This document shows, piece after piece, positions 1-20,133 of a DNA stretch of 64,000 nucleotides. The position numbers and the translations under genes were made by a program. The DNA comes from a candidate division FCPU426 bacterium. GTDB taxonomy: Bacteria; Oederibacteriota; Muellerivitia; Muellerivitales; Muellerivitaceae. A model generated the notes under the pieces. The model was not told the origin of the DNA and did not search any database. It worked only from the letters and a program-made list of their open reading frames with translations. Position 1 is the first letter of the stretch. Each line of letters opens with the position of its first letter. The DNA lies in the NCBI GenBank assembly GCA_963738405.1, contig CAVTWJ010000023.1, positions 64,001 to 128,000 on the forward strand. Direction: 5' to 3'.

Positions 1-2
1 CT

Positions 3-1564
3 GTTTCAATCCCGTCTAAGTCCGGGCACTACAAGCAACTACAATTACCGCGAAGGTTTGATCGACGAGAAGCATGTTTCAATCCCGTCTAAGTCCGGGC
101 ACTACAAGCAACGGTGGATCAACGCCGTCGCCAGTCGTCACGCCAGTGTTTCAATCCCGTCTAAGTCCGGGCACTACAAGCAACCGCAGAAACCGGGCAC
201 AAAAGAGAAGTACAAGGTCAGGTTTCAATCCCGTCTAAGTCCGGGCACTACAAGCAACTGAGTTATTTTCCGCCATTCAAGGATTTGCTTCAAGTTTCAA
301 TCCCGTCTAAGTCCGGGCACTACAAGCAACTAATTTAGTGATCGGTAGCCAAACCCTAGAAGGGTGAGTTTCAATCCCGTCTAAGTCCGGGCACTACAAG
401 CAACCAAGGGGACATTCTCACCATTACCGTGAATCTGGCGGTTTCAATCCCGTCTAAGTCCGGGCACTACAAGCAACTTCGGGTTATGGATGGGTGGAAA
501 AAAATGGTTTGTGTTTCAATCCCGTCTAAGTCCGGGCACTACAAGCAACCCAGCCATTGCACTGTTGGCATCTCCATATGTGGGAGTTTCAATCCCGTCT
601 AAGTCCGGGCACTACAAGCAACTTCGGCTCATCAAGGCGACACCGTGGAGTTCGAAAGTTTCAATCCCGTCTAAGTCCGGGCACTACAAGCAACTCAGTA
701 AAGTCCATCGAACATCCGTTTAGATGGGAGTTTCAATCCCGTCTAAGTCCGGGCACTACAAGCAACGTGTATAATCTGACTCCTTGATTTCTCGATTGGT
801 TTAGTTTCAATCCCGTCTAAGTCCGGGCACTACAAGCAACATCCGGACCATGTTTTTAGGAATAATCGCCATAATGTTTCAATCCCGTCTAAGTCCGGGC
901 ACTACAAGCAACACAAGGTGGAGGACGATATGATCCGTTTAACGCATGAGTTTCAATCCCGTCTAAGTCCGGGCACTACAAGCAACAGACGGCCTCGGCT
1001 TCAACCAGCGGGCAACAGCAGTTTCAATCCCGTCTAAGTCCGGGCACTACAAGCAACTTACCAAGAAGGTATTCCTTACGAGGATTCGAGGGTATGTTTC
1101 AATCCCGTCTAAGTCCGGGCACTACAAGCAACCGAAACTGATTGAAGAATCAAAGGAAGTTTGGGAGTTTCAATCCCGTCTAAGTCCGGGCACTACAAGC
1201 AACATCCGCAAGGGAAAGAGGTAGCTCACTTTCAATTCGTTTCAATCCCGTCTAAGTCCGGGCACTACAAGCAACACTTCGAGCGATGAAGGGATGCACG
1301 AAAACCTAGAGTTTCAATCCCGTCTAAGTCCGGGCACTACAAGCAACTTGACGAGGCCCTCACCGCCTCACCAGAAGCCAGGTTTCAATCCCGTCTAAGT
1401 CCGGGCACTACAAGCAACTGTTACTGAAATCGCATGGGCAGACATGAGTCTGAAGTTTCAATCCCGTCTAAGTCCGGGCACTACAAGCAACCAATATTGG
1501 TACGCGTCAAAGCCAGGGCAGTTTAATGTTTCAATCCCGTCTAAGTCCGGGCACTACAAGCAAC
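3..1564 (-). CRISPR. CRISPR array: 22 identical 37-bp repeats and 21 spacers (34-38 bp); probably continues beyond the left edge
   Basis: Repeat GTTTCAATCCCGTCTAAGTCCGGGCACTACAAGCAAC starts at 3,76,148,222,294,368,441,513,586,658,730,804,876,950,1021,1096,1167,1239,1311,1382,1455,1528. The minus-strand repeat ends in ATTGAAAC (typical 8-nt crRNA handle) and has a CCCG/CGGG hairpin, so it is most likely transcribed from the minus strand. Confidence 0.99.
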
Positions 1565-2713
1565 TCTACCATATTCCCAAGCAATTTGCGTATTTGTCGG
1601 TTCCTTTTGCCGCAAACCGTTTTCCACCTCCAAAACCCGCCCCTTTTGCGGAAACATCATTAAACCTTCAGTTTTTTCAGCTTCATTCACTTTGCTTTCC
1701 CCGTTTCCTATTTCGCTTTTGTTCAGTCTTTTCGGCCTGGGCCATTTACGTCCGTTCTCGAAGTGACAACCCAAAAAATCGAATCCTTCCTCCTGGGCAT
1801 CCACAATCCGGGTTTTTTCTGGGTGCAGTAAAAGACCAGCCTTCACCGTCCAGGCCCGTGCTTCATCAAGGGCTCTTTGGGCTTCCCACTCGCTTCGACA
1901 CAACACCATGAAGTCATCCGCATAGCGGACCATCTCATAGCCCCGGTTTTCCATTTCTCGGTCTAAAGGGTCCAGATAGATATTGGAAAGCATGGGACTC
2001 ACAACGCCACCTTGGGGAGTTCCTGTTTTCCGCCTCCACTTTCTCACTCCATCCGTGACTTCCTGGTTTAAATAAGCCCGGATCAGGTAAAGAACACCCC
2101 CATCGCCTATCTTCGCTTCGACCAGTTTCATGAGTCTCCCATGGGGGATGGTGTCAAAATAACTTTTCAAATCGGCATCCAGCACCCAAACATAACCATC
2201 TCCCAGCAACCGTTCGACCCGCTTCAGCGCATCCTTAACTCCCCGCATCGGCCGGAATCCATAGCTGTGGCTTGAAAAATCACGTTCAAAAATAGGTCCT
2301 ATGACGTTACGCAAAGCCGTCTGGGCCACCCGATCTTCCACCGTCGGTATTCCCAGGGGTCTTTTCGTTGGGCTTCCCGCCTTGGGAATCCATATCCTTT
2401 TAACCGCCTGGGGTATATACCGCCCCGCTCTTAACCTGATCGCGAGATTTTCGAGGTTTCGGGCAAGGCACGCCTTATACATATTGACAGTGGTTCCATC
2501 CAATCCGGCACTCCCATGGTTGGCCTTCACCCTCTTAAAGGCGCTCAGGAGATTCTTTGGTTGGTACACCAAATCCATCAGTCCCAGCCACTTTTCCCCT
2601 TTCATCCAATTTTCCAACTTCGTCAGCATACGATCTGTCCATATACTTGGTTCGACCCACAGCCACCTTTGCTGAATTGCGCCGGTGTTTGCACCCATTC
2701 CCGGCAGGATCAT
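1541..2713 (-). CDS. Group II intron-type reverse transcriptase lacking the thumb/X domain, CRISPR-associated
   Basis: Motifs NHGSAGLDG (RT0), IPKAGSPTKRPLGIPTVEDRVAQ, SYGFRP, DADLKSYFDTIPH, GTPQGGVVSPMLSNIYL, RYADDF, GFDFLG; recognisable similarity stops after WPRPK. Confidence 0.9.
   Translation of the reverse strand: MILPGMGANTGAIQQRWLWVEPSIWTDRMLTKLENWMKGEKWLGLMDLVYQPKNLLSAFKRVKANHGSAGLDGTTVNMYKACLARNLENLAIRLRAGRYIPQAVKRIWIPKAGSPTKRPLGIPTVEDRVAQTALRNVIGPIFERDFSSHSYGFRPMRGVKDALKRVERLLGDGYVWVLDADLKSYFDTIPHGRLMKLVEAKIGDGGVLYLIRAYLNQEVTDGVRKWRRKTGTPQGGVVSPMLSNIYLDPLDREMENRGYEMVRYADDFMVLCRSEWEAQRALDEARAWTVKAGLLLHPEKTRIVDAQEEGFDFLGCHFENGRKWPRPKRLNKSEIGNGESKVNEAEKTEGLMMFPQKGRVLEVENGLRQKEPTNTQIAWEYGRVACSART
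1565..1717 (-). promoter_or_regulatory. Putative CRISPR leader, overlapped by the read-through tail of the RT ORF
   Basis: Non-repeat segment with A/T tracts between the last repeat and the point where RT homology ends; on the cas-proximal side of the array. Confidence 0.6.
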
Positions 2714-3090
2714 AGGTTTAATCCCCCAGAACTAACCGAAGCCAGAAAACTCCGGTCCGATTTATCGCCAACTTCTGTTGCCGATTCAATGTCAGTCTCT
2801 TCCCCCATCAATTTATCAGCCTTCCCCCCATCTCCGATAATGATTGCTTCCATTTTCCCGCCTAAACACCTCTGACTAATAGGTAATAGCATGACCCTTC
2901 CATAGGAAGTCGGCGAAAGCTTGGATTTCAATTGCGCAAAAAATTCTGGGCGCCGATCCGGTTCCATCTCACCCATAAAAACCGAAAGCTGGACGCGGAC
3001 CAAGCCCGCGTCCTTGCAGGCCTCGGCCACCTTGGTCCGAAACTTGGTCTTTTCAATGTCATAAACGACTAGGACGTAGGTATGTTCCAT
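2710..3090 (-). CDS. cas2: Cas2 with a C-terminal extension (ORF track starts at 3126; ATG at 3090 more likely)
   Basis: VLVVYDI...KVAEACKDAGLVRVQLSVFMG motif; immediately after cas1. Confidence 0.93.
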   Translation of the reverse strand: MEHTYVLVVYDIEKTKFRTKVAEACKDAGLVRVQLSVFMGEMEPDRRPEFFAQLKSKLSPTSYGRVMLLPISQRCLGGKMEAIIIGDGGKADKLMGEETDIESATEVGDKSDRSFLASVSSGGLNL

Positions 3091-3161
3091 TTCAGTAAGG
3101 TAACCCGGAAAGGCGCCGGAAAACATTTTGCAATATTACTGAAATTTCGTTCAGGGTAGGA

Positions 3162-4370
3162 TTACCAGACCATTTTCCAGACCTCAAAGCGCGGGGTTTT
3201 CCCGGCCAGGAAACCCTTCAATTCAACCACTTGAGCATGGAAAATCTCGCTTAAAGGCATCCGGGAACCCTGAAAATCCACATCCACTTCCAGCCGGGAC
3301 AGGATCGACTCGGCCAGTTCTTTGCGGCTTTCATCCACCATGAGGCCTTCCTCCGTTCGGGCCAATCGGCCCTGGTTGACGAGCGCAATGACCGTCTTGT
3401 CCACGACCGGCTGGCGGAAAGGTTCCACGAGATCCAAAACCAGGGAAGGTTTTCCAGAGCGGTCGGTATGGAGAAAACCCGCGAAGGGCTCCAGTCCCTC
3501 AAGGACCACCGCCGACCAGACTTTGGCGTAAAGGATGCCGTAACCGTAATTAATCATCGAATTAAAAGGATCCTGGGCTCCGTGCCCTTCCCGGCCCGTG
3601 AATTCGACCTTGTTCCGGACCAGCAGACCAACCCCCGTCCAATAACACCGTGAAGCGGCCCCTTCGTACCCCATAAGACGATCCCTCAGGACCGACCAGT
3701 TGGCGTCCCCCAACTCCCCGGCCATGGACAGGACCGCCTCTCCCCCGTCCTCGATACCCTGAATAAGGCCCCTCAGTTCGTCATATTGGGCGGAGTCCTT
3801 TTCCTTGAGATACTTGCCGGAATACTTGAGCAAAGTGGCTTGGTTCCTGATCTTTCCGAGGATGAGACTGGAAGCAATGACTAGGCCTCTAGAATCTTTG
3901 AAGGCCGCCATTTGTTCCCTGCGGATTTCCACCGACTCATGCCAAGACGGGGAAGAAACAAGGGCATAGGGCTCGCCGGACGGCGAAACGAAGGCGATGG
4001 GGATGCGGCGGACGCAGAGTTCTTCCAGGAGGTCGGACGAAATGGAAACGCCCCTGGAGGAAACCATTACCTCGGCCAATTGGAAAAAGGGTATTTCAAG
4101 TAGGATCTCAACGCGTGGCCTGGGAGGCTTACCCGCCGCCTGTTCCTTCATGTCCCGGGCTTTTCTCAGGGCGCGAAACGGTACGATGGATGGGCCTTTT
4201 TCGTCGAAGGCGATCTCGACATAAGCGCCGACAGGCCGAAGCCCAAGGTCCAGATCGGCTTGGGCAGGCTCGGGCGCCCGCGCCATCACCACCCGGGGCC
4301 CCTTCACCACCAACCGCTCGGATTGCTTGGAAAGCGTTATTCCGAAGTCGTTGAGGATGATGCGTTTCAT
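3162..4370 (-). CDS. cas1: Cas1 with an insertion in the N-terminal domain
   Basis: KIRNQ, LMGYEGAASRCYW, DPFNSMINYGYGILY, GFLH, SLVLDLVEPFR; catalytic E/H/D present. Confidence 0.97.
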   Translation of the reverse strand: MKRIILNDFGITLSKQSERLVVKGPRVVMARAPEPAQADLDLGLRPVGAYVEIAFDEKGPSIVPFRALRKARDMKEQAAGKPPRPRVEILLEIPFFQLAEVMVSSRGVSISSDLLEELCVRRIPIAFVSPSGEPYALVSSPSWHESVEIRREQMAAFKDSRGLVIASSLILGKIRNQATLLKYSGKYLKEKDSAQYDELRGLIQGIEDGGEAVLSMAGELGDANWSVLRDRLMGYEGAASRCYWTGVGLLVRNKVEFTGREGHGAQDPFNSMINYGYGILYAKVWSAVVLEGLEPFAGFLHTDRSGKPSLVLDLVEPFRQPVVDKTVIALVNQGRLARTEEGLMVDESRKELAESILSRLEVDVDFQGSRMPLSEIFHAQVVELKGFLAGKTPRFEVWKMVW

Positions 4371-4467
4371 ATCCGGCCTCTTCCCGGTTTAGCGGGGTGG
4401 GGTAATGTCGAATATCATTTCAATGCGACAGCTTTAATACGCACCATTCGGAAAAATGACAGTTTTT

Positions 4468-5322
4468 TCATTTCGATTGGGTCCGCAAGGGAAGGATCTG
4501 AAGCTGTCCCATACCCATCGTGGAACCCTTGCCTATATGCAGCCATTGAAGGGCCGCGAAAAGAGGCTTGAAAGAACCAGGGCCATCGGGTAAATCCAAC
4601 TTCCCGGATACACCCTGCATATCGATTTCCCGTTCTTGACGGCCCGAATATCGCACTAGATCAAGCCGGTCACCCAACCACAGGTTAGAGGGTATCCCAC
4701 GAGCTTCCGCCAGCATTTCCTTCTGGCCCGAACGAAGAACCTGCTTCATCCCATCCTCCACCAACATTGACACCCGGCGGATACCCGCGACGACCATGTC
4801 GGTGAAACTTGGATTTTCGACAAGAATTCCTTTTCGAACCAACCGGAGGGGGGCGGTAAAGCTGAAGGAACAAGCCTTTTCTTCCAGGGGCCAACGCACG
4901 TTACTCGCCTTCCAACCACTGAAACCCCTATCCCATTCCAGGAATGAACCCGAGGGGCTTATCGGTCGGGTCATCCGGACGTGGAATCGCCTGCGTTCTG
5001 GACCCAAACCCATCCCGGAAGCAACGTCCCATGCCCGCATGAGGGTTACATCATGTTTTGTGGCATCACCCAACAAAATGAATTCCAAGGCGGGAGAGTC
5101 CCCAGGGTCCGGGGATGCGGGGCGAAAAATATAACCCGGGGGCTGATCAATAGAATTCTTGTCACCCTCGAAAACTTCCCGGTAAGCAACCGGGTCCAGA
5201 TCATGTAGCGCCGCACCCCATACACCCCTCAACATGGGGATGGTAGCCCTTACGCCAGGCGTATCCAGGGATATCCTGCGGGGCAAGATGTTTATTCCGT
5301 CTAAAATTCCAGGCCAATCCAT
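4468..5322 (-). CDS. cas6: Cas6 crRNA-processing endoribonuclease
   Basis: MLRGVWGAAL motif, FTAPLRL, RYSGRQ, C-terminal G-rich loop HIGKGSTMGMG. Confidence 0.92.
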   Translation of the reverse strand: MDWPGILDGINILPRRISLDTPGVRATIPMLRGVWGAALHDLDPVAYREVFEGDKNSIDQPPGYIFRPASPDPGDSPALEFILLGDATKHDVTLMRAWDVASGMGLGPERRRFHVRMTRPISPSGSFLEWDRGFSGWKASNVRWPLEEKACSFSFTAPLRLVRKGILVENPSFTDMVVAGIRRVSMLVEDGMKQVLRSGQKEMLAEARGIPSNLWLGDRLDLVRYSGRQEREIDMQGVSGKLDLPDGPGSFKPLFAALQWLHIGKGSTMGMGQLQILPLRTQSK

Positions 5323-5338
5323 AAATCACGCTATCCAA

Positions 5339-5374
5339 GTTTAATCCCGTCTATATCCGGGCACCGTCTGCAAC
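5339..5374 (-). repeat. Solitary degenerate CRISPR repeat in the cas6 5' UTR
   Basis: GTTTAATCCCGTCTATATCCGGGCACCGTCTGCAAC versus array repeat GTTTCAATCCCGTCTAAGTCCGGGCACTACAAGCAAC; hairpin stem and both ends conserved. Confidence 0.9.
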
Positions 5375-5382
5375 TTTATTTC

Positions 5383-5700
5383 CTATGAAACCCTGGTCAA
5401 GATTTTATAGTCGTATCCCAAATCCCTTAACTCTTTCTCGCTCAAGTCTTTCCCCATTGGGGGTCGCTCTTTCAGTTTGAATACTAAGACTTGGTCTCCG
5501 GGTTTCGGATCCCATTGTTGGCGGTTGAATGAGCATTCCACACCCAAATCATCCGCGATCAATTGACAGGTTGCTTCATGTCCGATAAAAGAAACCAGAC
5601 CCGGCTTGGCGAATTCCCTAGCCGTTTCTAATGTAATGGTTTCCAAACGATAAGTTCCATCAGATGGGAGAATCGCGGTATTGATAACAGCCATCACCAT
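5383..5700 (-). CDS. crn2: DUF1874/AcrIII-1-family cA4 ring nuclease (Crn2-like)
   Basis: 105 aa with NTAIL..DGTY, SFIGHEAT, FNR, GDQVLVFKLKERPP; next to a CARF effector. Confidence 0.85.
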   Translation of the reverse strand: MVMAVINTAILPSDGTYRLETITLETAREFAKPGLVSFIGHEATCQLIADDLGVECSFNRQQWDPKPGDQVLVFKLKERPPMGKDLSEKELRDLGYDYKILTRVS

Positions 5701-5742
5701 TGCTTAATTCCTTTCTAATAACGAAGAACAATTAAAAATTAA

Positions 5743-6912
5743 TTATAAGTATTTTCGAAATAGTTCTTGATCATCATAGTTATCCGCAATGGTTTGAATA
5801 TCCCCGCGCAGGATGAGATTAATGCCGTAAACCTTGGCGCGATCAAAAGCCGCTTTCTTCGCCCCTTCATTATTTTGTAAATAGACCGAAGTCGTGATCC
5901 CCCAGATTTTCGTTTTTAAAGCCTTAATGTTTGTAACAATGCTAAAAATCTTAAAAAGAAAATCAGCTTTTTTATCGAACATTTGAAAACCGGATTTACA
6001 CTCAATGCCATATAAAGTCTGATTTTTAATAAAACAAACATCCAATTCTTGATTCTTCTTATGCAAATGGCATCCCGGTAATACCTGGGTTATCCCATTA
6101 AAGGTTTGGTGTTTTACAACCCAATTAAACATGAACGCTTCAAGCCATCCACCTGTTAAAAAATCCCCCGTTTTAGGTGATGTCGTGCCAACTAACCATT
6201 CATTTTCTAAATTAAGCCCCAATAAAGTAGCCATATCATTTGTAAACAAATCCTTATTAACTTTAATTTCACCCGGTCGCACTTCAGTTCCTTTGCGAAT
6301 AATTTCTTTACGATCATTTTTAACCAGAAAAGACCACAAATCTCCGCTAACTTTTGCGGTGGCCAATGCTAAATTTTCTAATTTAGGAAAGTTATTCTTT
6401 TTTCCAGTCACAACGGACCAGTTATCTATTTCTTCCCCATAACCCGCCAAATATTCATTGATATTTAACGGATAATCGCAAAACACATCCTTTTGATCGT
6501 TCTCAAATAAAATCACATCCGGTTTTCCAATATCGATATACAGATAATCCACATTCCCAAATTCACCGTTAGAGAACGTGTCATAAGCAGCAATTGACAT
6601 TAATTTATTACCGCCGGTTAAATTCACGTACCATTCCGTTGCTCCCTTTGCGAGGATTTTTTCGATACCACTTCTTAAATCATTCTCGATTTCCGAGATG
6701 GACAATTCATTAGTAAGAAAAATATCTTCTAAAATTTTCACGCCAGGATTCCCATTAACTTTCAACGCATCCTTTAACCACTGGGTATGATTCGTATTTA
6801 CATCTAGTGTTTTTTGGGTAACCACCAAAACCACCTGGTCAGGTTTTAAACTTTTTATGGGTAAAAAGTTAGGAACATGCTGGGCTGAAACAAGACAAAC
6901 CATTGTTTTCAC
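5743..6912 (-). CDS. card1: Card1/Can2-family CARF + restriction-endonuclease-like cOA effector
   Basis: CARF: LVSAQHVPN, NLTGGNKLMS; nuclease: GGWLE, ELDV, IECKSG; visibly AT-rich. Confidence 0.85.
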   Translation of the reverse strand: MKTMVCLVSAQHVPNFLPIKSLKPDQVVLVVTQKTLDVNTNHTQWLKDALKVNGNPGVKILEDIFLTNELSISEIENDLRSGIEKILAKGATEWYVNLTGGNKLMSIAAYDTFSNGEFGNVDYLYIDIGKPDVILFENDQKDVFCDYPLNINEYLAGYGEEIDNWSVVTGKKNNFPKLENLALATAKVSGDLWSFLVKNDRKEIIRKGTEVRPGEIKVNKDLFTNDMATLLGLNLENEWLVGTTSPKTGDFLTGGWLEAFMFNWVVKHQTFNGITQVLPGCHLHKKNQELDVCFIKNQTLYGIECKSGFQMFDKKADFLFKIFSIVTNIKALKTKIWGITTSVYLQNNEGAKKAAFDRAKVYGINLILRGDIQTIADNYDDQELFRKYL

Positions 6913-6938
6913 GTTAGAACCTTTCTGATTAGCTGGTT

Positions 6939-9359
6939 TTATCTGCCATCCTTCCGGTCATTGCGTCTGGTATCTTGGTTCTGGGACTGATTGCCCCCGC
7001 TATGGTCGTTCGGTCGGGCGTGTCTGGCTGGGTCAAACGGCTCGAATTTTTTGTATTGCTTTCGGTGATCCCCCGTTTCACTAACCCAATCAGGATCACT
7101 GCCCGAGTAAAGGTTATAACCGTATAAAATATCACTCTGAGGTTCCTTGGGATTCAGGATCGGAAGAGGTTGAGCCCGCAGGCGATCTTTCTTTCCCGCC
7201 TTGTCGCTGAGGGGCCCAGCGATATGAAGAGTCTCCAAACCCTGAGGATATTCACCCTCTCTCGGGGATTTGAGCGGCGTTACGTGACGCTGGTACCAAA
7301 TATGTCCGCCCCAATTTTTCTTGTTGTTATTCTCAATGGCAGCTCGGGGATACCGAAGTTTCGCGACGGGCTTTTGAACCTTCTGCCAGATATCTAGCCG
7401 CGACAATAATTGGACGTCCTTGCCTAGTTCTGCTTTGTAATTCCCAGGCAAGTCCGCAATGGTCTCATCAGCCCTGGTCATCACCAGGGGTTCGCCCAGG
7501 GTCCCGTCATCACCCAGGGGACGAAGTGTCGCCCGAACGATCCTGCAATGGCCCAGACCCAGGGGCTTGCCCCCGCCCAAGCGCCAATCCACCGAACAAG
7601 AAGCCAAAACCAATGTCACTTCACGGGGGCTTAAAGCCCGAAGGGTGACACGCAAGTGACCCAATGGGGCGTTTTCCTCCGGCAAAAGATCCCCTGTTTT
7701 ATTTGCCTTTTGGTGGGGATCTTTCATGCGGCCCGCATAATCCGAGATACCTTGATTAGCAAAAAGCCACGGGGCGGCCGAGCCCCTCTCGCTACTGGTC
7801 CGGTAAACCTTATAACCCCTAAGGGGTAAACCATGATTGGCTACCAGGTCCGCCATTGAGTCCCCCGAGACCTCCCTATAGAAAGCCGCGCAGCCTGGAT
7901 GGGGTTGCTGCAATGGGGCCAAACTTACGGCCTTCATCTTGTCCATACAGCTTTTGAAAATCAGGTTACCCAAACGTACCCTTGCCGCGAAAGATTCTGA
8001 TGGTACCTGTTCGCGGTCGGCCCAGATGGGCACCTCCTTGGTCATGTCAGGTCGAGGCACCTGGCCGAATAGGTTGGTTACCTCGTCCACCAAGCCGTCC
8101 GGGTTAAACGCATCAGGTAAAACGTGTGGATGATGAGCCGATACGATGTCCAAGAGGCGCTCACCCGTCCGTCCCCAACGTGCCCATTGAATGGATTTCA
8201 CCTCATCAGCTTTCGTTATGTTATGGCACTTGGGATCAACCGGTTCAAGCCAGACTAAATCACCTTTCATAAGTTCTTTTTTATCCGCATGGCGGTGCCT
8301 GCCGTAAAATGCCGACCATAGTTGAGTTGGCAGAATGATCTCTTCTTTCCCGGCTAAGAAGATCCCCTCCCGCTTCCCCCTGTTATTGATGGGCCCCGAC
8401 AATTTCACCTGCCAAGCATGAGCCTGACTTGGGGTCTTGGACAAACTCGTACCAGCCTCGTTAGACCAAATAGTCTCACCCTTGCTGCCCGGCTTGGGCC
8501 GGTTCAAGGGAACATTGCATTGACGTGACGCTTGTTCAAGGTCTTCCCACTTAATCAATTTCGTTTTTCCCAGCCGGACCCGTCCCGGACGATTCACTTC
8601 GCCCACCTCGACCACTTCCGCCAGAAACGGGTTCTCTGGGACAATTCCCTGCGTGGCCGGCGTGGCGGGTCCCAAACGAGCGTCACGGCCCTGGCACAAC
8701 CAAGCCTCTTCGTCGAGGTGGCCCAAAGTCCCCCCTGTGAGGACTGAAAGGAGAGAACGAAGTGACCCTCGCACGCCGGTTGCGGGAACAACAATGTCCG
8801 TGCCGATGGCCAAAGCTTTGTAGGTCTTGTGGTCGCTTCCCTTGTTGACCGGATCTGATTCGTTGGTCAAGAGGGGGGAAAGCAATTTCACTTCCAGGTC
8901 TAGCACTCCTGTGAAACGATCCTTTTCTACCTCATCTACGCTCAAAAGCGTGGGTTTAACACGCCTGGGGGGTTTGGAAGCGAATGGGATAAAGGTGTAG
9001 GGATTGTGGAATGGTTCTCCTAAAATACTTGGGTCACCCGCACCCGCGTTATCCGCATGCGTGTTGGTCGGAACGGGCCGTCCGGCCCCACCCGGTCGGT
9101 GATTCCTGGCGTTACGGTCGGGCCTAGGCTCCGGTTTTCTCGATGGATTCTGCCCACTTGAACTGGATGCTAGGTTGCTCCCGGACGAAGCCCCTGCTTT
9201 TTCATATTCCGCCCAGAGTTTATCCGCTTCTATTTTCAGGTCGCCTTCGCATTTTTTTCCATTATTGCGCCAGCGATTGAAATCATCGACCTGGCTAGAT
9301 GAAAGCTGGCGTTTCTGAAGGTTTTCTCTAAACAATTTAATGGATGGATGTTCTGGCAT
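6939..9359 (-). CDS. cas7: Type III-D Cas7 with large insertion (Cas7-insertion RAMP)
   Basis: FHNPYTFIP, LLSPLL, VPATGVRGSLRS, LFGQV, RGYKVY, LGGGKPLGLG. Confidence 0.88.
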   Translation of the reverse strand: MPEHPSIKLFRENLQKRQLSSSQVDDFNRWRNNGKKCEGDLKIEADKLWAEYEKAGASSGSNLASSSSGQNPSRKPEPRPDRNARNHRPGGAGRPVPTNTHADNAGAGDPSILGEPFHNPYTFIPFASKPPRRVKPTLLSVDEVEKDRFTGVLDLEVKLLSPLLTNESDPVNKGSDHKTYKALAIGTDIVVPATGVRGSLRSLLSVLTGGTLGHLDEEAWLCQGRDARLGPATPATQGIVPENPFLAEVVEVGEVNRPGRVRLGKTKLIKWEDLEQASRQCNVPLNRPKPGSKGETIWSNEAGTSLSKTPSQAHAWQVKLSGPINNRGKREGIFLAGKEEIILPTQLWSAFYGRHRHADKKELMKGDLVWLEPVDPKCHNITKADEVKSIQWARWGRTGERLLDIVSAHHPHVLPDAFNPDGLVDEVTNLFGQVPRPDMTKEVPIWADREQVPSESFAARVRLGNLIFKSCMDKMKAVSLAPLQQPHPGCAAFYREVSGDSMADLVANHGLPLRGYKVYRTSSERGSAAPWLFANQGISDYAGRMKDPHQKANKTGDLLPEENAPLGHLRVTLRALSPREVTLVLASCSVDWRLGGGKPLGLGHCRIVRATLRPLGDDGTLGEPLVMTRADETIADLPGNYKAELGKDVQLLSRLDIWQKVQKPVAKLRYPRAAIENNNKKNWGGHIWYQRHVTPLKSPREGEYPQGLETLHIAGPLSDKAGKKDRLRAQPLPILNPKEPQSDILYGYNLYSGSDPDWVSETGDHRKQYKKFEPFDPARHARPNDHSGGNQSQNQDTRRNDRKDGR

Positions 9360-9361
9360 GC

Positions 9362-10783
9362 TTATACCCCTTCCGAAAATAGTTTTTGAAACGTGATATT
9401 GGTGGATTCACTCTGCAGACCGGTAGCCCGCGATTCTTTTTCCAATCGCAATCGACCGGAAGCCTTGCTGGTACCCACCCTCAGAACACCGTAATGCAAG
9501 GCCGCCAGGGAAGAGGCAAGCCAGCGCACCTCATCCCCGGAGGGGTTTTGAATGGTGACTTGTGTCTTAAACCTGACCCCGCCAGTCAAAACGTGAGCAT
9601 CAAAAAGAAAGCCCTCGTTGGCCCCCCCTGAAATCCGATCGATGGCCACATGCTTTCGTAGCTGAACCTGGTTATCCGTAGAAGGCTGTTCGGAAAGTGC
9701 GTCGCCTATGTGTACCCGGCCCCGGGAATACAGGCTCCCGAACAACCGCATGATGGGGCAAGGAACTTCTTTTTCCAGGGAACCTGGATCGGCAATCAGG
9801 GCGTCCTGGATATGAACACGTTCATGATTCTCGGCATAACCCCATCCCACTTGATCGCCTTTTGGCGCGAGATCATTCCCGATCATGTCTAAATGCCGTG
9901 CATAGTTATCCGCGACAGGATGCCCTTCTCGGGCGGCCAGACGACTCATCCAACCCCGGAAGACACCACGTAGGCTGGAACCGGGCAATCGCCACCTGGT
10001 CTTGCCGTCGGCACCGACGACTTTTTGGGGGCCAAGATCGAATTCTCCTCCGTCCCCTTCGCCGACTAACAGGTCCTCCCCGGGTGGTATGGAAAGCACC
10101 AAGTCGATCCGCAGGTCCTTATCACCCGCGCCAACAGGCATCAGGGTTTCTCCGGTTATGGGAAAGATCCCCTCCCGGATTTTGTATCGCTCATCCATGT
10201 ACTCGGCCTGCTGATCCAAGTTGGCGCAATCAAAGGCACGATAGGAAGGTTCCCCCACTAGCTGGAGACGACCCAAGCCCCGAGAAGAATGGCCCCCAAC
10301 AGTCAACCCGCCTTTCAAAAGCGCCACCAGGCTTCCCATAAATGCCCTTGCCTCATCCCGCTCATCGCATTCGAGCCAGAGGACTAGGTCGGTCGATGTG
10401 TCCGGTGGCAGGGCCTCGACCTCGAAATGCGCGCCGCCCATGACCGATCCTGTGTGCCGGTCGATGGCGTTATGGGTGCGCCAGCTCTCGCCTTGACCGC
10501 CGGTCTCAAGCCGACAATCGGACACCTTAAGGAGGCTTGGATGGTAAGCGTCGTTCGTGTTGGCGTCGCCGAACCACTTCGTGACAAGGGCGTCTTCCGT
10601 CGCGACCCCGTGATGCCGGGCCCAGGCATGCCGCAGAGCGCCCGCCAGGGCTGTACCCCGCAAGACCGGTCGGCCTATCCCGTCGCGGGCCAGGGCCAAC
10701 CGATTGGCCAATTGCCCTTCACCTGGACTGACGCCTTCCGGAAACACGATTTTGGAGATTAAACGGTGGATGATCTTTGCCAT
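9362..10783 (-). CDS. cas7: Cas7-Cas7 tandem RAMP fusion (ORF track starts at 10822; ATG at 10783 overlaps the upstream stop)
   Basis: Two RAMP units: LRGTALAGALR...HNAIDRHTG...GGHSSRGLG, and LPGSSLRGVFR...LFGS...HVAIDRISGG...GTSKASGR. Confidence 0.88.
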   Translation of the reverse strand: MAKIIHRLISKIVFPEGVSPGEGQLANRLALARDGIGRPVLRGTALAGALRHAWARHHGVATEDALVTKWFGDANTNDAYHPSLLKVSDCRLETGGQGESWRTHNAIDRHTGSVMGGAHFEVEALPPDTSTDLVLWLECDERDEARAFMGSLVALLKGGLTVGGHSSRGLGRLQLVGEPSYRAFDCANLDQQAEYMDERYKIREGIFPITGETLMPVGAGDKDLRIDLVLSIPPGEDLLVGEGDGGEFDLGPQKVVGADGKTRWRLPGSSLRGVFRGWMSRLAAREGHPVADNYARHLDMIGNDLAPKGDQVGWGYAENHERVHIQDALIADPGSLEKEVPCPIMRLFGSLYSRGRVHIGDALSEQPSTDNQVQLRKHVAIDRISGGANEGFLFDAHVLTGGVRFKTQVTIQNPSGDEVRWLASSLAALHYGVLRVGTSKASGRLRLEKESRATGLQSESTNITFQKLFSEGV

Positions 10784-12831
10784 TAGCGCCCCTCCAGACC
10801 CGAAGTTAAAAGGTTGTGCCAAACACGAAGAGCCTTCTTGGCTTTTTTCGGGTCATTCTGGATTGCCTGAATCAGTACCGCCTGGACATGTTTCCAACGG
10901 CCCCAGATCCTCCTCGACCTGGTATCTTTCTGGCGTTCCAGGAAATTGACTGCTTCCTGCCCGCCCTGTTCTTTGATACGCGCCGCGACCGCCGCGACCT
11001 GGGACGCGCTTAACCCGTCGTTCTTGGACATTTCACACCACCCCAAGGCCCATTCACCTGCCTTGTCGCTAGCCAGTGTCGTCAGGCTGGGTTCGGGCAA
11101 GTACAGTCCCTCCGCAATGCCCGGGTGGGGCAAGACGGCCCCGTAACCCTGGATGCGCCCATCCAGATCCCCCCCCGAGTCAACCCCCAGCCCCCGGTTA
11201 ATCTGATTCCAAAGGTTTTCCGGCTCCTTTTCCAGCACAAAAACGGACCCGGGCAGGAAAACCCGGCGAGCCGCCAAACGACCTGCGGGATCGATCCGAC
11301 CGCCCAAGCCGTAGCGGTTCCAGCCAAATCGGACACCGCAAGCAGCCATGTGGCCGACCTCGGCAACCCTCGCCGATTTTTTGGGGGAGGCAATCTTACC
11401 CCACCCGCTTTCCTCCACCAGACGGGCCAGGGCGGTCTCGGCGCATTTCACCTGCCAATCATCGGGAATGGCCGCGGGGGATTGAAGAACGAATACTTTT
11501 TTCTTCCAGCCCTTCAATTGCGTGGCCGGTTCTATGTTCCTTATCAACTTCAAGAGCCCCCCCCCACGAACGGTGCGGGCCTTGCCAAAGACAAATAGCG
11601 GGTTTTTTTGGACCAATGATTGGAGTTTTTCAGCGGCCTGTGGAGGTAGCGTGACCCAACCGGCGTAATTAAGCGGGGCCATCGCCTCGACTGTGAACAA
11701 GTTGCGCTTGTCCTTACCTTCCGGGTCGTAATGAACGGCATGAGCCGTGAGAATGCGAGGCATCTCACCCGACTTCCAGAGGAGGACTTTCCCTGAGGAA
11801 TCGCGAAGTAAGACACCGTCAGTGCCTTTTAAGGGGGAAGCCTTGGGAACCTGCGTCCAGTCATAGGGCTCGACCGCCGAATCGCGGAATTGTTGGTCTA
11901 TTTTGAGCTTGCTCATCCTGTGGCTCAATGAAACCCGCACCGGGTTCATCAGTTCCCCGTTACCCTCCTCTAGGAGGGTCGGTAGGAGGGGCCAGGCCCT
12001 GGTCCTGCGGTCCAAAATAGCGGCATGGGCTAGGGCCGAATCAGCTTGTGCTAACCGAGAAATAAGGGCGCCCAATACCGCCGAGGCAGGGATTCCCAAT
12101 CCGGTTCGCAAGATGTTGTTGCCCATATCAGGTGTTTCCGGGCAGCAAACCGGGTCCTCGGCCGAAAATGTAAGCCTCAATGTCACGGCCGGACCATCCG
12201 GTTCTTTGGCGGCAGGGGTTACCATGGGGTTTGGGGTTTCACCCGGCAATCCCTTTTCCATTTCCCTCGCCAGTTCCCGCAAAAAGGCTCCCGGGGTCCG
12301 CTTTTCGTCCGCAATTTTGACCAGACAGGAGCCGCTTCCACGGTTACGGTTACCGCCCACCGCTTCCATGGTCAATAGGGCCAGGGATACGCCAAGGGTA
12401 ACAACCGGCGATGCGCCTTCCGCAATCTCGATTTTCCCCATAAATTTTGTTCCGACGGCCACAGCTTCCGATGTTCTAAGCGTCTGGTTCACTGCCACCC
12501 CCAGTTCCCCCACGGCGGTCCTTGTGATCGGATGGACAAGACCTTGGGCCCCTTCGGGCAGGCGGGCATCGTGAACTTTCACCTGACCCTGATACCCTGA
12601 ATCCCCCTCCTGGCCTGGACGACCCAGAACCCGATTGGTCAGGGTCGGCCAATCCCGGCTGACGGCGATCCGGCCGAGGGTGTCCCTCAAAAGACCCTTG
12701 AGGTGGCTGCTTCGGACCACCGGGCGGTCCTGATGATCCCGTGCCACGATGTCGTTGACCGTTTCACCACCCTTCCCGCTGCCAATCTCTCCATCGCTTA
12801 ACAACTCGATCTCATATTGGATTGTTGTCAT
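10783..12831 (-). CDS. Cas7-Cas5-(Cas11) fusion, type III-Dv-like
   Basis: Cas7 motifs (SSHLKGLLRD, GGNRNRGSG), then Cas5/Csx10-like motifs (IPASAVLGAL, GKARTVRGGG, PGSVF, QGYG), then a helical C-terminus LSASQV resembling Cas11. Confidence 0.8.
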   Translation of the reverse strand: MTTIQYEIELLSDGEIGSGKGGETVNDIVARDHQDRPVVRSSHLKGLLRDTLGRIAVSRDWPTLTNRVLGRPGQEGDSGYQGQVKVHDARLPEGAQGLVHPITRTAVGELGVAVNQTLRTSEAVAVGTKFMGKIEIAEGASPVVTLGVSLALLTMEAVGGNRNRGSGSCLVKIADEKRTPGAFLRELAREMEKGLPGETPNPMVTPAAKEPDGPAVTLRLTFSAEDPVCCPETPDMGNNILRTGLGIPASAVLGALISRLAQADSALAHAAILDRRTRAWPLLPTLLEEGNGELMNPVRVSLSHRMSKLKIDQQFRDSAVEPYDWTQVPKASPLKGTDGVLLRDSSGKVLLWKSGEMPRILTAHAVHYDPEGKDKRNLFTVEAMAPLNYAGWVTLPPQAAEKLQSLVQKNPLFVFGKARTVRGGGLLKLIRNIEPATQLKGWKKKVFVLQSPAAIPDDWQVKCAETALARLVEESGWGKIASPKKSARVAEVGHMAACGVRFGWNRYGLGGRIDPAGRLAARRVFLPGSVFVLEKEPENLWNQINRGLGVDSGGDLDGRIQGYGAVLPHPGIAEGLYLPEPSLTTLASDKAGEWALGWCEMSKNDGLSASQVAAVAARIKEQGGQEAVNFLERQKDTRSRRIWGRWKHVQAVLIQAIQNDPKKAKKALRVWHNLLTSGLEGR

Positions 12832-14369
12832 GAGTTCACTTCCGTCACCCAGTTCATCCTTGAATCTTCTTCCAGTAGGAGTAGCGCATCTATCACGGGT
12901 GTGGTACGCACGTTATGCCCGTTTTTGACCGATTTTTTCCATTTGCCTCCGGGTTTTTGGGGGCTTTCACCCTCATCCAGGTCGTTACTCAAAACTTCCT
13001 GGTTCTTCGCCAAGCTCTTCGCGAAGATCTTTCGGTCAAAAAAACCGGCCCTCATCCCTTTCAGCACACGGTGGCGGACCGAACCGGGCACTTTGCTGTA
13101 TTCCTGGGCTAACCGAATGAGGTCTCTCAGATCCGCGACCGGATAAGGCCTTTCGGTCAGTTGGATCCTCTCGTTCTGTAGATCGGCGTCCTGAAAAACC
13201 AATTCACGCTGTCGGCGAGCATGGGGTGTGTCGACCAGCCCCTCGGTGACCGATTCCCAGTCCACAAAAGAGGGGGTCGGAAAAACTTTTTGTTCACGGC
13301 CACCGCCCTTGGCGCTCGCCAGAAGCAGCTCGGTATAGGAGATGGCGGTGCTTAGCGGCAGGCCAATCGGGGCGAAGAGAATCCCGGCCGAAAGGGTGAT
13401 GTGGGATCCGGTAGCGGGCCACAGGTCAATGCCCCCCTTTTTCGCAAGGGCTGCCAATTCGGTGCTTTTCTCCTCGAAAACCCTGCAGGCTTCCCTTACA
13501 AAAGTCATCGCGTAACCGACATGACAAAGAAGGATAATGTCGTCCCCGCCGACCACGAGAGGCCGGATAGGCAGGATTATCTCCCCCCCGTCGACATCGA
13601 AACCTTCCTTTAGAGCGCGGATTTCTTCAATAATTAAGTCGATACCCTTCCTGCATGCTTCACGGCTGCAGGTGTCCAGGTCGCGACTCATCCGCCGAAG
13701 CCAACCGGTGAAAACGTCCGCCCGGTCCCCTAATTTTTCCACGGCCTTTCGATGCTGGGTTCCAATGTCGTTCCCATCCATGGCAATCACCGCCCAGCGG
13801 TTTCGGCCACCTAGTCTCTGCAAGGCTATTTTTCCCGCTGGGGTCGATTTATCCACGTCGTGGAAAAAGCTGAATTTCAAACCTTCTCGGCCATGACCAT
13901 TAACCCCCCCCAGCAATTCATCCTCAAAATAACGGTCCATCCGGTCCCCTTTTTGCCAGACCCGTTTTTTAACGATGTCGCTGACGCCGTTATTGGCCGG
14001 GTAGAGCCCGCTATCGGCACAAGGTTTGCCTCCCAGTTCGATGCTGGAAGGTAGCCAGGGATAAGTTTGGTCCGCGCCGTGGATGGCGACCGTGAAGTCA
14101 TCCGAAACGCCGAAACAGATGGTTAAACCATCCCGGTGCGCGGCTTCTACCAACTTGCGTCGTACCCTTTCCACTGCCTGGTCATTGGTACACTTGTAAG
14201 CGCCTTTTCCGCCGCCTGAAAAGAGGTGCTCTCCTTCCGGATCATTTATGCCTGGCGCGGTCACCCTGTCGTAACGGTCAATCAGCGCGCTTGATCCGCA
14301 AATGTATTTAAGGCGTGGGATTGAAAAGATGAAAGATTGAATGCCTTTTAAGTCATAGCAAAGATACAT
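12828..14369 (-). CDS. cas10: Cas10, compact, no HD domain, intact GGDD palm
   Basis: YDLKGIQSFIF, FSGGG, IAMDGNDIG, LVVGGDDIILL, LSAGI, ELLLASAK. Confidence 0.93.
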   Translation of the reverse strand: MYLCYDLKGIQSFIFSIPRLKYICGSSALIDRYDRVTAPGINDPEGEHLFSGGGKGAYKCTNDQAVERVRRKLVEAAHRDGLTICFGVSDDFTVAIHGADQTYPWLPSSIELGGKPCADSGLYPANNGVSDIVKKRVWQKGDRMDRYFEDELLGGVNGHGREGLKFSFFHDVDKSTPAGKIALQRLGGRNRWAVIAMDGNDIGTQHRKAVEKLGDRADVFTGWLRRMSRDLDTCSREACRKGIDLIIEEIRALKEGFDVDGGEIILPIRPLVVGGDDIILLCHVGYAMTFVREACRVFEEKSTELAALAKKGGIDLWPATGSHITLSAGILFAPIGLPLSTAISYTELLLASAKGGGREQKVFPTPSFVDWESVTEGLVDTPHARRQRELVFQDADLQNERIQLTERPYPVADLRDLIRLAQEYSKVPGSVRHRVLKGMRAGFFDRKIFAKSLAKNQEVLSNDLDEGESPQKPGGKWKKSVKNGHNVRTTPVIDALLLLEEDSRMNWVTEVNS

Positions 14370-14425
14370 CGAGAACCCCTTTCAATCATTTGTTCGAGGC
14401 CGCGTAATAACAAGACGTTTGATTC

Positions 14426-15601
14426 TCAAGACAGTAATCCTAATACCTTAATTGAAACCAACGTCCGATCAATCCCCAAAACCGCCTGGAGAGGATGCGC
14501 ACCTGAGCCCCGCCCCAGTTCGTTGACGATCAGCGCTGCTTTCGATGGGCCGAGTTGGGTGATGAGCCGTTTCCCAAGGCGGGACCGCGACGCCCCCCAC
14601 CAATTCGTCTCTAAAATCATGTCTGTATCAAATGGGCCCGTTAATAAATCATCATCGTTTTTGAAAATCCTGTAGGCAATCCTGCAAAACTCCAAATCCT
14701 TGGGTGTTAGCATAATTTTGATCGCATTCCCCGCGTTTGACTGCGCCTGATTGGTTAACCTACAGGGCTTTAACTGACAGGTCTCGCATGACTTAACATC
14801 CCGCGGACAAAGAATTCCATTTTTGCGCCACGCCAAAAGCGCCACCCAGAGGCTCTGTTTCGGGTCCAGGTCAAGCCGTTTCCCGTCCACTTCGATGTAA
14901 CCAGGGGCCTTTTCCAAGTTCACCGTCAAGCTGACCTGCTTCATGTTGAATTCCTCAAAAGCCGTCGTGAGCGAGGTTTTCAATAAATCGAGATGGATAT
15001 TCCTGAAAAAGTTATTGAGGCGAGGAAAAGGCACTTCAAAAAGATTAACCCATTTTATTTCGGCCTTCTTTTTGGGGTCAGGATACCACCCATTCGAAAG
15101 TTTCTTTTCCTTTCCCGGGTCCATGAGAACGTGGTAAAGAGTGTCCCCTTCCCTGGCGAAGGCGGACATACCAAGGGTCAGGTAAGCGGACATGGTTTTC
15201 CGCCCGCCCGCGAGGGAAGCTTGAAGCCCCACCGCCGGGTCTTTTGTGAATTCGTCCAAACGTTGGGCGATTTCCTCTTCCATGGCGGCGTTGGCCTCGC
15301 TGTCGCCAAGATCTTTTTTTATTTTCATTTTGGGGGGAATATGGATTTGAGATTCACCAAAAAGCGGGAAGGTTTTAGCCGGTAATTTCCAATCTTTCCA
15401 AAGCCTGGCAAAAGGGCCTTTCTTCATATCGATCAAGCCGGCTTCCAGAATTTTATTTTTACCTTCGCTGGTCGTGATCACATGAATTTCAGTAAGAATC
15501 ATTTTGTTTCTTACCACCAAAGCCCAAATCGCCTCGGTCAATACGGCCGGTGATTCCCCACCCGTCGCCAGAAAAATACTCTTTTTCTTATTCATAAACA
15601 C
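14426..15601 (-). CDS. NE0113/Csx14-family CARF protein with a Cys-rich and possibly wHTH C-terminus
   Basis: LATGGESPAVLTEAIWAL, HVITTSEG, SLAGGRKTMS, LYHVL; first gene of the cas operon. Confidence 0.8.
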   Translation of the reverse strand: MFMNKKKSIFLATGGESPAVLTEAIWALVVRNKMILTEIHVITTSEGKNKILEAGLIDMKKGPFARLWKDWKLPAKTFPLFGESQIHIPPKMKIKKDLGDSEANAAMEEEIAQRLDEFTKDPAVGLQASLAGGRKTMSAYLTLGMSAFAREGDTLYHVLMDPGKEKKLSNGWYPDPKKKAEIKWVNLFEVPFPRLNNFFRNIHLDLLKTSLTTAFEEFNMKQVSLTVNLEKAPGYIEVDGKRLDLDPKQSLWVALLAWRKNGILCPRDVKSCETCQLKPCRLTNQAQSNAGNAIKIMLTPKDLEFCRIAYRIFKNDDDLLTGPFDTDMILETNWWGASRSRLGKRLITQLGPSKAALIVNELGRGSGAHPLQAVLGIDRTLVSIKVLGLLS

Positions 15602-15761
15602 CCCCCCTTAAATTAGTTTTCAATCTTAAACCCGCCTGTCTTGTCTTTATAAATATCTTTCGCCCGTAAAGTCATTTAACGCTTCCTTAACATTGGTTTT
15701 CTTTTTATCCACTAATTTTAAGCCATTGTCTCAAAAGTCTTTTCCAATTCTAGTTGTGTTA

Positions 15762-16430
15762 TTAACGTCCTCGTCCCGAGCTTCTAAATGAACAACCCAT
15801 CGGCATTCTCATGGGAGGAGGCGCCGAGTAGTACATCACCCGTGGGGCGGAATAAATGACCCTAGCCGGTTGGGGATTAGCGTATCGAACGTAAGCCCGC
15901 CGAATAACCCGCCTTGGCGGGGTTGGGAGATAGACCCGAACATAACGATGGTCAATTACGGGGGGGCGAACAATCGTTCTCCTTTGATGGTATTGGTAGG
16001 ACGGCCTGGTGAAATGCCGGATCGGGTTTGAGATATATCCTCCTGTCTGATGGGTGATCGCTACCACACTAGCTTGGGTATAGGATTGCGACGAATAAGG
16101 ATAAACCGAAGAAGCCATTTGGGCTGAACTAGGTTGATTCGCGTGTCCTACAACTACGTTCCGGGATGCCGAACGCGTGACATGATTTTCACCTTCTGCG
16201 GGTGGATTACTAACGCGATGGGAAAGGGCCTCTAGACCCAAGAGGATGATTCCCCCACCCATTGCCAAGGTGAAAAGGATCGGACCCCAGTTTCGCTGGG
16301 CGCGCGGAACCGGTCGGTAAGGCGCGGTAACTCCCTGAACCGTTCTATGGCTCGGCGAAGAGCCAACGGGATTGATGGTCCCTTGAACCCTGTCGAAAGT
16401 GAACTGATCATTCGTTACGAAGCGTTCCAT
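15762..16430 (-). CDS. Hypothetical single-pass membrane protein with a Pro/Arg/Tyr-rich tail
   Basis: Hydrophobic segment ILFTLAMGGGIILLGL; GGAGG RBS upstream; co-directional with the Clp gene. Confidence 0.6.
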   Translation of the reverse strand: MERFVTNDQFTFDRVQGTINPVGSSPSHRTVQGVTAPYRPVPRAQRNWGPILFTLAMGGGIILLGLEALSHRVSNPPAEGENHVTRSASRNVVVGHANQPSSAQMASSVYPYSSQSYTQASVVAITHQTGGYISNPIRHFTRPSYQYHQRRTIVRPPVIDHRYVRVYLPTPPRRVIRRAYVRYANPQPARVIYSAPRVMYYSAPPPMRMPMGCSFRSSGRGR

Positions 16431-20106: not shown

Positions 20107-20133
20107 AAAGCACCTCCAGTTATTTTTCGGTTA

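Follow-up and report, generated by a model that had tools for sequence, protein, structure and literature searches.

Organization of the type III-D-like locus

The window, by which we mean the whole 64-kb stretch of DNA that was analyzed, carries a CRISPR-Cas locus whose cas genes all lie on the minus strand. Read along that strand, the locus opens with a gene for a Csm6-like CARF protein (14426-15601), followed by genes for a short Cas10 (12828-14369), three fused RAMP proteins (10783-12831, 9362-10822, and 6939-9359), and a Card1-like CARF nuclease (5743-6912). This effector and accessory gene set (5743 to 15601) is type III-D-like, and the effector genes are closest to those of the related loci L004 and L049, with which they share 34-44% identity and an identical gene order. 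The next gene (5383-5700, minus strand) is Csx16-like and encodes a small type III accessory protein of 105 amino acids, which matched both the Pfam STIV_B116-like family (E = 8.2e-20) and the PADLOC Csx16 model (E = 3.7e-16). We take the Csx16/STIV-B116-like family to which this protein belongs to be ring nucleases.

Downstream of the Csx16-like gene lies cas6 (4468-5322, minus strand), which encodes a protein of 284 amino acids. It is followed by an adaptation block, also on the minus strand, made up of cas1 (3162-4370), cas2 (2710-3126), and a gene for a stand-alone reverse transcriptase (RT; 1541-2713). From the Csm6-like gene through the RT gene a single strand is used, and the intergenic gaps measure 0-97 nt. 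The CRISPR array (3-1564, minus strand) closes the locus and extends past the left end of the window. It contains 22 identical 37-nt repeats and 21 spacers of 34-38 nt, with a start-to-start period of 71-75 nt. When targets of all 21 spacers were sought within the window, only short chance matches were obtained.

On the minus strand, the array repeat reads GTTGCTTGTAGTGCCCGGACTTAGACGGGATTGAAAC and its 3' end is ATTGAAAC. The 33 related repeats that we collected all close with a comparable tail of 8 nt when read on the cas6 strand. Because the array repeat ends in ATTGAAAC and its 33 relatives carry similar tails, the minus strand was taken as the crRNA strand. An Rfam scan of positions 1-17000 (E <= 1) detected no CRISPR-DR family and no group II intron; its lone match, a snoRNA at E = 0.38, is implausible.

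A solitary CRISPR repeat precedes cas6

The Csx16-like gene and cas6 are separated by 60 nt, of which 36 belong to a CRISPR repeat derivative; without the repeat the gap would measure 24 nt. This solitary repeat (5339-5374) reads GTTGCAGACGGTGCCCGGATATAGACGGGATTAAAC on the minus strand. The TAG stop codon of the Csx16-like gene lies 8 nt ahead of it, and a 16-nt spacer (5323-5338) separates it from the cas6 ATG. It is oriented like the array, sharing a strand with every cas gene and with the crRNA, and is 3775 nt away from the array. Neither an adjoining copy nor a regular periodicity, as would be expected of a member of an array, was found.

A covariance model was trained on 34 repeats of the window's Cas6 family and run against the 64-kb window. 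The solitary repeat scored 28.8 bits (E = 1.1e-5), the array copies scored 37.6 bits, and the next match outside the array scored 21.5 bits. We also scanned the window with a 22-nt core pattern that has two free positions, allowing up to three mismatches. This pattern matched 23 times, at the 22 array copies and at 5343-5364, in every case with no mismatch, whereas 100 shuffles gave a chance expectation of 0.00 matches. By the core-pattern scan, the window has no copy of the repeat core beyond those in the array and the solitary repeat. The first-pass annotation had described a 36-nt repeat variant at this position, oriented as the array, about 3.8 kb from it and 16 nt from cas6, with a CCCG/CGGG stem and an ATTAAAC end; the covariance model and the core pattern confirmed the repeat, and each of these particulars proved correct. 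The unit at 5339-5374 is a genuine CRISPR repeat derivative.

The 36-mer folds into a hairpin (5346-5361) with a 4-bp stem (5358-5361 paired with 5346-5349) and an 8-nt loop, on which the minimum free energy (MFE) and centroid folds agreed at -7.3 kcal/mol; the hairpin of the array repeat is identical. The stem is intact, at family columns 14-17 and 26-29, and the bases beside it are kept, including the three located 5' of the stem. At columns 17/26, the solitary repeat and the window's array share a flip from C-G to G-C that sets both apart from most of the family. Alignment to the family model, together with column conservation, delimited a handle of 7 nt, ATTAAAC (5339-5345), as against 8 nt in the family, and the missing base is G33. 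Handle positions 30 and 32-36, G33 among them, are invariant in 34 of 34 family repeats. Compared with the array repeat, the unit differs in its 5' flank (columns 6-10), in its loop (columns 20-21), and in its handle, where G33 has been lost.

An in-frame TGA at 5328-5326 rules out any earlier start for cas6 than the ATG at 5322. The first three codons are ATGGATTGG, an opening that is shared by cas6 of L033, L034, L042, and L056, and no strong Shine-Dalgarno sequence is visible in the 16-nt spacer at 5323-5338. The stretch separating cas6 from the Csx16-like gene showed no terminator-like site on the minus strand. A sequence scan pointed to a promoter-like site, TTGACC-16-TAAAGT (5373-5400, minus strand), which abuts the repeat and overlaps its first two bases. 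We regard it as a weak lead only, because the scan found 6 such sites in 16.6 kb, no excess over the 12.6 +/- 3.5 found in shuffles. In the fold of 5290-5400, a helix pairs the stop region of the upstream gene with the cas6 AUG, but it was given no weight because the z-score is just -0.55.

A second, faint repeat had also been claimed within cas6 codons 1-11 (5290-5314, or 5290-5327 at full length, minus strand), and with it a mini-array whose pseudo-spacer would be excised as a mini-crRNA. In gapped local alignment, 5290-5314 scored 12 against the solitary repeat and 11 against the array repeat, which ranks in the top 0.02% and 0.17%, respectively, of 8284 background windows of 45 nt. We nevertheless rejected it as a repeat. 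With filters off and a search space of 351 nt, the family model scored it at 0.7 bits (E = 3.5), no hairpin was formed (MFE of -1.6 kcal/mol, z-score of +0.6), and the start-to-start distance to the solitary repeat is about 47 nt rather than the 71-75 nt of the array. When the same 15 codons were recoded synonymously 4000 times, equal or better scores were reached in 21% (array repeat) and 29% (solitary repeat) of the recodings, so that the likeness stems from the encoded peptide, MDWPGILDGIN. The mini-array and the mini-crRNA fell together with the second repeat, since it failed the model, fold, and recoding tests. The 40 nt following the solitary repeat had only 13-nt chance matches (92% identity, E = 5.8) in the 64-kb window, so that the search of the window for complementarity to the pseudo-spacer spoke against the CreA/CreR-like guide role that had been suggested for it.

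The cas6 product and the predicted cut in the operon message

The product of the gene at 4468-5322 matched Pfam PF10040 with 41.5 bits (cut-off 25), and its homologues are named Cas6 at NCBI. Its AlphaFold model had a pLDDT of 94.2, and the top fold matches in the PDB were all Cas6 proteins (4c9d_B, 6fjw, and 4c8y), foremost Thermus thermophilus Cas6 bound to RNA. The best match, T. thermophilus Cas6 4c9d_B, was found at E = 2.2e-10 with TM scores of 0.62/0.66. A search of the PDB by sequence with the Cas6 profile returned nothing at E <= 0.01. The profile and the two-domain RAMP fold of the predicted structure both identify the protein as Cas6.

According to the TtCas6A/B study (PMC3902920), these enzymes need a 4-bp stem-loop and unpaired bases 5' of it, and they are single-turnover enzymes that retain their product. 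Since the solitary repeat keeps what these nearest structural relatives need, cleavage by the window's Cas6 is plausible. Because the stem, the three bases preceding it, and the cut-site context are all kept, and because no terminator-like site was detected between it and the upstream gene, we consider a cut likely on operon read-through; by analogy with TtCas6A/B (PMC3902920), it would fall between G5346 and A5345.

Whenever transcription of the operon passes through the repeat, Cas6 would then bind it and cut between these two residues. The upstream product would be an effector and accessory mRNA ending in a hairpin held by Cas6, and the downstream product would be an RNA of cas6, the adaptation genes, and the array that starts with the defective 7-nt tag. 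The predicted cut would thereby separate the effector and accessory genes from the cas6-cas1-cas2-RT-array block. Because the downstream 7-nt tag lacks a base that is invariant in 34 of 34 family repeats, the unit would be expected to serve as a processing site and to make a poor guide.

Repeats upstream of cas6 in related loci

A homology search gave 256 Cas6 homologues at E <= 1e-3, and the best non-self match was 55% identical; the nearest homologues, at 53-55% identity, all came from metagenomes. For comparison we used 80 loci from a one-genome-per-species scan, with Cas6 proteins 36-52% identical to that of the window, and analyzed them by array detection, with an nhmmer profile of the 34 family repeats, and with a weight-matrix scan. 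Sequence upstream of cas6 was available for 77 loci. In 18 of them, nhmmer placed a same-strand family repeat in the 300 nt preceding cas6, with 12-285 nt between the last repeat and the gene. For most of these 18, the gene order is cas1-array-cas6 and the repeat belongs to the trailer end of a complete array. Another 13 of the 77 loci carry same-strand family repeats farther upstream, and 46 had none.

A second layout has effector and accessory genes before cas6, and cas1 and the array after it; the layout of the window resembles this one. Homologues of the window's RAMP806, Card1, or Csx16-like protein are encoded upstream of cas6 in L003, L004, L006, L031, L032, L049, L058, and L060, and a repeat-like match within 150 nt before cas6 was found in none of these eight window-like loci.

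Units abutting the start codon were sought in the 110 nt before cas6 using a weight matrix of the hairpin and handle. A unit within 16 nt of the cas6 start was detected only in the window (score 20.3), in L001 (15.1), and, weakly, in L063 (7.4), that is, in 3 of 78 loci with the window and the weak L063 case counted. No background position of the same locus reached the score of any of the three units. L001, which has the highest Cas6 identity among the compared loci (51-52%), carries a degenerate unit with L001's own stem type that ends 0-12 nt before the first possible cas6 start. The stem's 3' half is found 8-9 nt before the start in L001 (GAGGGG) and L063 (GGAGGG), and the stem of the window's unit is 24 nt away from the cas6 ATG. 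The first-pass annotation had let its reading hinge on conservation of the repeat before cas6 in homologous loci, and on this point the outcome was mixed. Such conservation holds within 300 nt of cas6 for the 18 of 77 loci, mostly as array trailers; directly abutting the gene, it is confined to L001 and, weakly, L063, and in the loci of window-like gene order (0 of 8) it fails.

Isolated family repeats are also common here: 12 of the 80 loci contain them, with 13 units in all. In L024, a solo unit is located 47 nt before the cas6 reading frame and 430 nt from that locus's own array. L057 has an isolated repeat between a CARF gene and a gene for a CRISPR-associated PrimPol, 44 nt before the latter, which heads the adaptation block; the 5' part of this unit is unlike the array repeat of L057 and resembles repeats of other loci. 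The isolated repeat of L061 adjoins a transposase fragment, and some others lie at variable distances from genes. An apparent pattern, in which orphan units keep the stem and lose the end of the handle, was dropped, as its detection was biased and several units also had a stem mismatch. A tblastn search of a plasmid collection with Cas6 gave four records, all at 47% identity or less and mostly at 22-28%, which were uninformative on context.

Decay or constraint

We compared the solitary repeat with the array repeat using a family weight matrix from which the window's repeat had been left out. The solitary repeat scored 28.0 and the array repeat 25.3, and over columns 1-12 the scores were 7.7 and 0.4, respectively. 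The 5' part of the solitary repeat matches the repeat of L001 at 11 of 13 positions, as compared with 8 of 13 for its own array. The 5' third of the solitary repeat is thus more typical of the family than that of the resident array repeat. All seven of its substitutions fall in columns that are less than 90% conserved in the family, and when decay of the array repeat was simulated 5000 times (7 substitutions and 1 deletion), only 0.2% of the products scored as high.

These data argue that the solitary repeat is not simply a decayed array copy and that it has had a different history or been under constraint. They are no proof of selection, because the array repeat, rather than the solitary unit, may be the one that changed in columns 6-10, which would account for part of the preservation.

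Cas6 trees and the origin of the repeat

In a quick tree, the window's Cas6 grouped with those of L001, L002, and L013 (SH-aLRT 92), and in a careful tree it grouped with those of L017, L001, L013, L002, and L038 (support 86/81). Three of these five careful-tree companions (L001, L002, and L017) have an array directly upstream of cas6. The window's Cas6 fell outside a 30-row clade (support 95 in the quick tree) that holds most of the other-layout loci and consists of 19 other-layout loci, 10 unclassified loci, and 1 with a distant upstream array. The supports of these groupings were all below the starred level. An AU test did not reject a tree in which the window joins the 30-row clade (p = 0.71), and this constrained tree even surpassed the quick free tree by 11.8 lnL units. 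L053, L060, and L074, whose translations are shorter than 200 amino acids, are omitted from both trees, and L080, which has a very long branch, is omitted from the careful tree as well. A firm placement of the window's Cas6 among the array-upstream loci was not reached, given support below the starred level and an AU test that did not reject the alternative.

Because loci of this Cas6 family very often have same-orientation repeats directly upstream of cas6, we favor an array-derived origin for the solitary repeat. It would be what is left of a collapsed array, or a terminal repeat that was carried along with cas6. A mosaic origin of the locus is plausible, though not established, in which the repeat would mark the seam between the two blocks: the window would have retained one repeat where the effector and accessory block meets the cas6-cas1-cas2-RT-array block.

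Interpretation of the solitary repeat

Our preferred reading, to which we assign a probability of roughly 0.55, is that the unit is an orphan repeat, derived from an array and located at the junction of two modules, and that Cas6 probably still cleaves it and so splits the operon mRNA. It builds on the observed identity and position of the repeat, on its intact determinants, and on its family context, and it extends them to a probable origin, a probable cleavage, and the consequences that cleavage would have.

Several observations touch on the orphan reading. The abutting unit of L001 speaks for it, as do the isolated repeats that recur in 12 of 80 loci, for example in L057, and a precedent from Sulfolobus, where a repeat-like motif near cas6-3 is cut by Cas6-3 in vitro (PMC4041471). 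Against it stands the rarity of abutting units, which were seen in just 3 of 78 loci and, where the gene order is the window's, in none of 8. The absence of the family-invariant G33 may count against cutting of the unit. As for its origin, an array-derived unit leans on the grouping with L001, L002, and L017, which has support below the starred level and faces the AU result of p = 0.71.

The repeat could instead be a selected autoregulatory operator, kept because free Cas6 cuts or occupies its own 5' untranslated region. Such an operator would match the expression of Cas6 and of the adaptation genes to the crRNA load and uncouple it from that of the effector genes. The position of the unit, in a tight 60-nt gap and 16 nt from the ATG, suits this reading, as does a preservation that beats random decay (0.2% of simulated decays scored as high). 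In L001 and in the weak L063 case, the stem halves 8-9 nt before the start resemble ribosome-binding sites that a Cas6 cut would remove. A defective tag favors a pure processing or binding site over a guide, and a full-text literature search found no published description of such a device. However, in the window the stem lies 24 nt from the ATG, beyond the range of a ribosome-binding site. The position is also variable, at 12-285 nt among the 18 loci, which are mostly array ends, and no such unit was found in the eight loci with the window's gene order. The good preservation may, moreover, largely reflect change of the array repeat in columns 6-10. We consider a selected operator unlikely.

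An extended form of the same idea is just as unlikely in our view. The cas6 message of this lineage, in which the array precedes cas6, would normally be made by Cas6's own cut at the preceding repeat, and the window would have kept a dedicated repeat after the array moved. This repeat would act as a feedback operator at the protein level that senses free Cas6 and sets the ratio of the effector and accessory genes to cas6, the adaptation genes, and the array, with a tag deliberately crippled against guide loading.

It is also doubtful, in our judgment, that the repeat is an inert relic. On that reading, an array lost not long ago, or a recombination event, would have left it behind, and it would go uncut or be cut without consequence. 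The loss of the invariant G33 would fit a relic, and isolated repeats are common (13 units in 12 of 80 loci), one of them beside the transposase fragment of L061. For type III, the published view is that such units are degraded (PMC10120712). However, the determinants known for the nearest Cas6 structures are all intact (PMC3902920), and with read-through of the operon, an element transcribed in the sense direction would meet any competent Cas6 in the cell.

Least of all do we believe in a crRNA-like guide or mini-array of the CreA/CreR/crlRNA type, in which a small RNA made from the solitary repeat and the faint copy would steer the effector to a regulatory target. In its favor, one 5' repeat suffices for a type III-style RNA (the ncRNA60 product occurs in Csm; PMC4041471), and the local likeness of the faint copy ranks among the top 0.02-0.2% of windows. 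Against it, this second repeat does not pass the family model, fails to fold, is wrongly spaced, and owes its likeness to the peptide it encodes. What would be the spacer is the start region of cas6 itself in the sense direction, matched elsewhere in the window only by the 13-nt chance hits. The tag of the solitary repeat is defective, and the known CreR/CreA examples work via DNA-binding type I and type V effectors.

Standalone repeats of type III systems have been dismissed as decay products, whereas this one is intact by the family model. It directly precedes the gene of the enzyme that recognizes it, in a compact operon, and in its family cas6 often follows an array. If Cas6 cuts here, the locus would provide a natural case of a CRISPR nuclease that processes its own operon mRNA, and a simple device for feedback and for uncoupling parts of an operon. 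Synthetic devices of this kind have been made with Cas6-type enzymes. Should the repeat go uncut, it would remain a useful marker of how the effector and adaptation modules were joined.

Comparison with known systems

Our full-text literature search found no report of Cas6 acting on its own mRNA or of a solitary repeat before cas6. The closest case comes from Sulfolobus solfataricus: its ncRNA60 has one repeat-like motif near cas6-3, is cut by Cas6-3 in vitro, and yields a product that was found in the Csm complex (Sokolowski et al. 2014, PMC4041471). The window's unit resembles ncRNA60 in being one repeat-like unit outside arrays and near the cas6 of a type III-containing locus, in its handle-like 3' part, and in having the cognate Cas6 as its obvious processing enzyme (PMC4041471). 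Unlike ncRNA60, a separate small RNA with demonstrated cutting, the window's unit lies inside an operon, and its cutting is predicted; its tag also lacks an invariant base, and it is located 16 nt before the cas6 start.

Standalone repeats were surveyed by Shmakov et al. (2023), who saw no enrichment between type III cas genes and judged type III mini-arrays degraded; their functional cases are type I and V-A mini-arrays with spacers that match cas promoters (PMC10120712). Like their elements, the window's unit is intergenic in a cas locus and matches the array repeat over more than their 16-bp threshold, but it is solitary, placed between cas genes, and undegraded by the family model. In CreR/CreA, a spacer guides Cascade or Cas12 to promoter DNA in type I and type V systems (bioRxiv 10.1101/2023.03.10.532045). 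The likeness to these is that of a repeat-derived element adjoining cas genes, with regulation of Cas expression having been proposed for CreA/CreR. In contrast to them, the window has no second repeat and no target within it, the system is type III, and any regulation would proceed by RNA cleavage or binding.

Viral solitary repeat units, or Racr, are likewise solitary repeat mimics, but they are encoded by phages and plasmids and sequester Cas proteins (PMC10651486), whereas the window's unit lies in a chromosomal-looking cas operon of the host. The 78 nt around the solitary repeat had no match among 50,697 phage records. Terminal array repeats, such as those at the array ends of 18 of 77 related loci, have the same orientation as the unit and the same position with respect to cas6, and several of them, for example in L015, L033, L039, and L053, show a similar handle defect. 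They differ from it in that no array is attached in the window, where the nearest repeat is 3.8 kb off, beyond cas6-cas1-cas2-RT. Taken together, these comparisons place the solitary repeat in a known class of standalone repeat-like elements, of which it is an unusually intact and unusually placed member.

Isolated repeats and array position in related loci

Isolated repeats of the Cas6 family, lying in the sense orientation 21-50 nt upstream of ORF starts, were found in five of the related loci (L057, L051, L033, L075 and L024), which were collected by their Cas6 similarity from one genome per species. The repeat in L057 (3212-3239) precedes a CRISPR-associated PrimPol gene, the first of the adaptation genes there, and in L051 a small unannotated ORF comes after each of two such repeats (10443-10478 and 10849-10883). 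Those in L033 (8841-8865), L075 (6123-6153) and L024 (7855-7889) each stand before an ORF start. One gene order recurred among 18 of the 77 loci with sequence upstream of cas6 (for example, L016, L019, L021, L035, L039 and L056), in which cas1, the array and cas6 follow one another on one strand. Because the last repeat in these 18 loci lies 12-285 nt before cas6, the row of cas genes has cas genes on both sides of the array, which occupies its middle.

A second repeat-model match and a predicted fold in the window

A second match to the covariance model of the family repeats was detected outside the array, on the minus strand at 42260-42300 (21.5 bits, E 0.0012). This match carries the family ending GGGGATTGAAAC unaltered and is enclosed by an ORF of 418 aa (41581-42837); it is probably due to chance. 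At the solitary repeat before cas6, a fold was predicted in which 5382-5390, around the stop codon of the gene upstream, pairs with 5316-5325, the region of the cas6 AUG, spanning the repeat hairpin; this fold was no better than those of shuffled sequences (z -0.55).

The reverse transcriptase and the start of the array

The reverse transcriptase (RT) ORF overlaps the first repeat of the array, with its TAG stop codon falling in the loop of that repeat (1541-1564). On the crRNA strand, the RT gene and the array are therefore not separated by a gap large enough for a leader, and a leader, if there is any, would have to lie within the RT coding sequence. The stand-alone RT (1541-2713) scored 326.5 bits against the curated NCBIfam model of group II intron RT/maturase, passing its cut-off of 300. 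An Rfam scan of window positions 1-17000 found no group II intron RNA, and a tblastn search (E <= 1e-5) found a homologue of this RT in none of the 80 related loci.

Neighbouring defence genes and the effector

Several further defence-type genes adjoin the CRISPR locus on the minus strand at 16537-22966, encoding a ClpB-like double AAA+ protein, an E1/ThiF-like protein with CBASS-type E1-E2 matches, a JAB-domain protein and an AbiEii-like protein, which together suggest a defence island. The effector itself (6939-14369) comprises a short Cas10 of 513 aa together with three large fused RAMP proteins. Two Pirellulaceae loci, L004 (265-7864) and L049 (5-4871), share this effector order, at 34-44% identity. 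The effector of the window is a type III-D-like fused variant.
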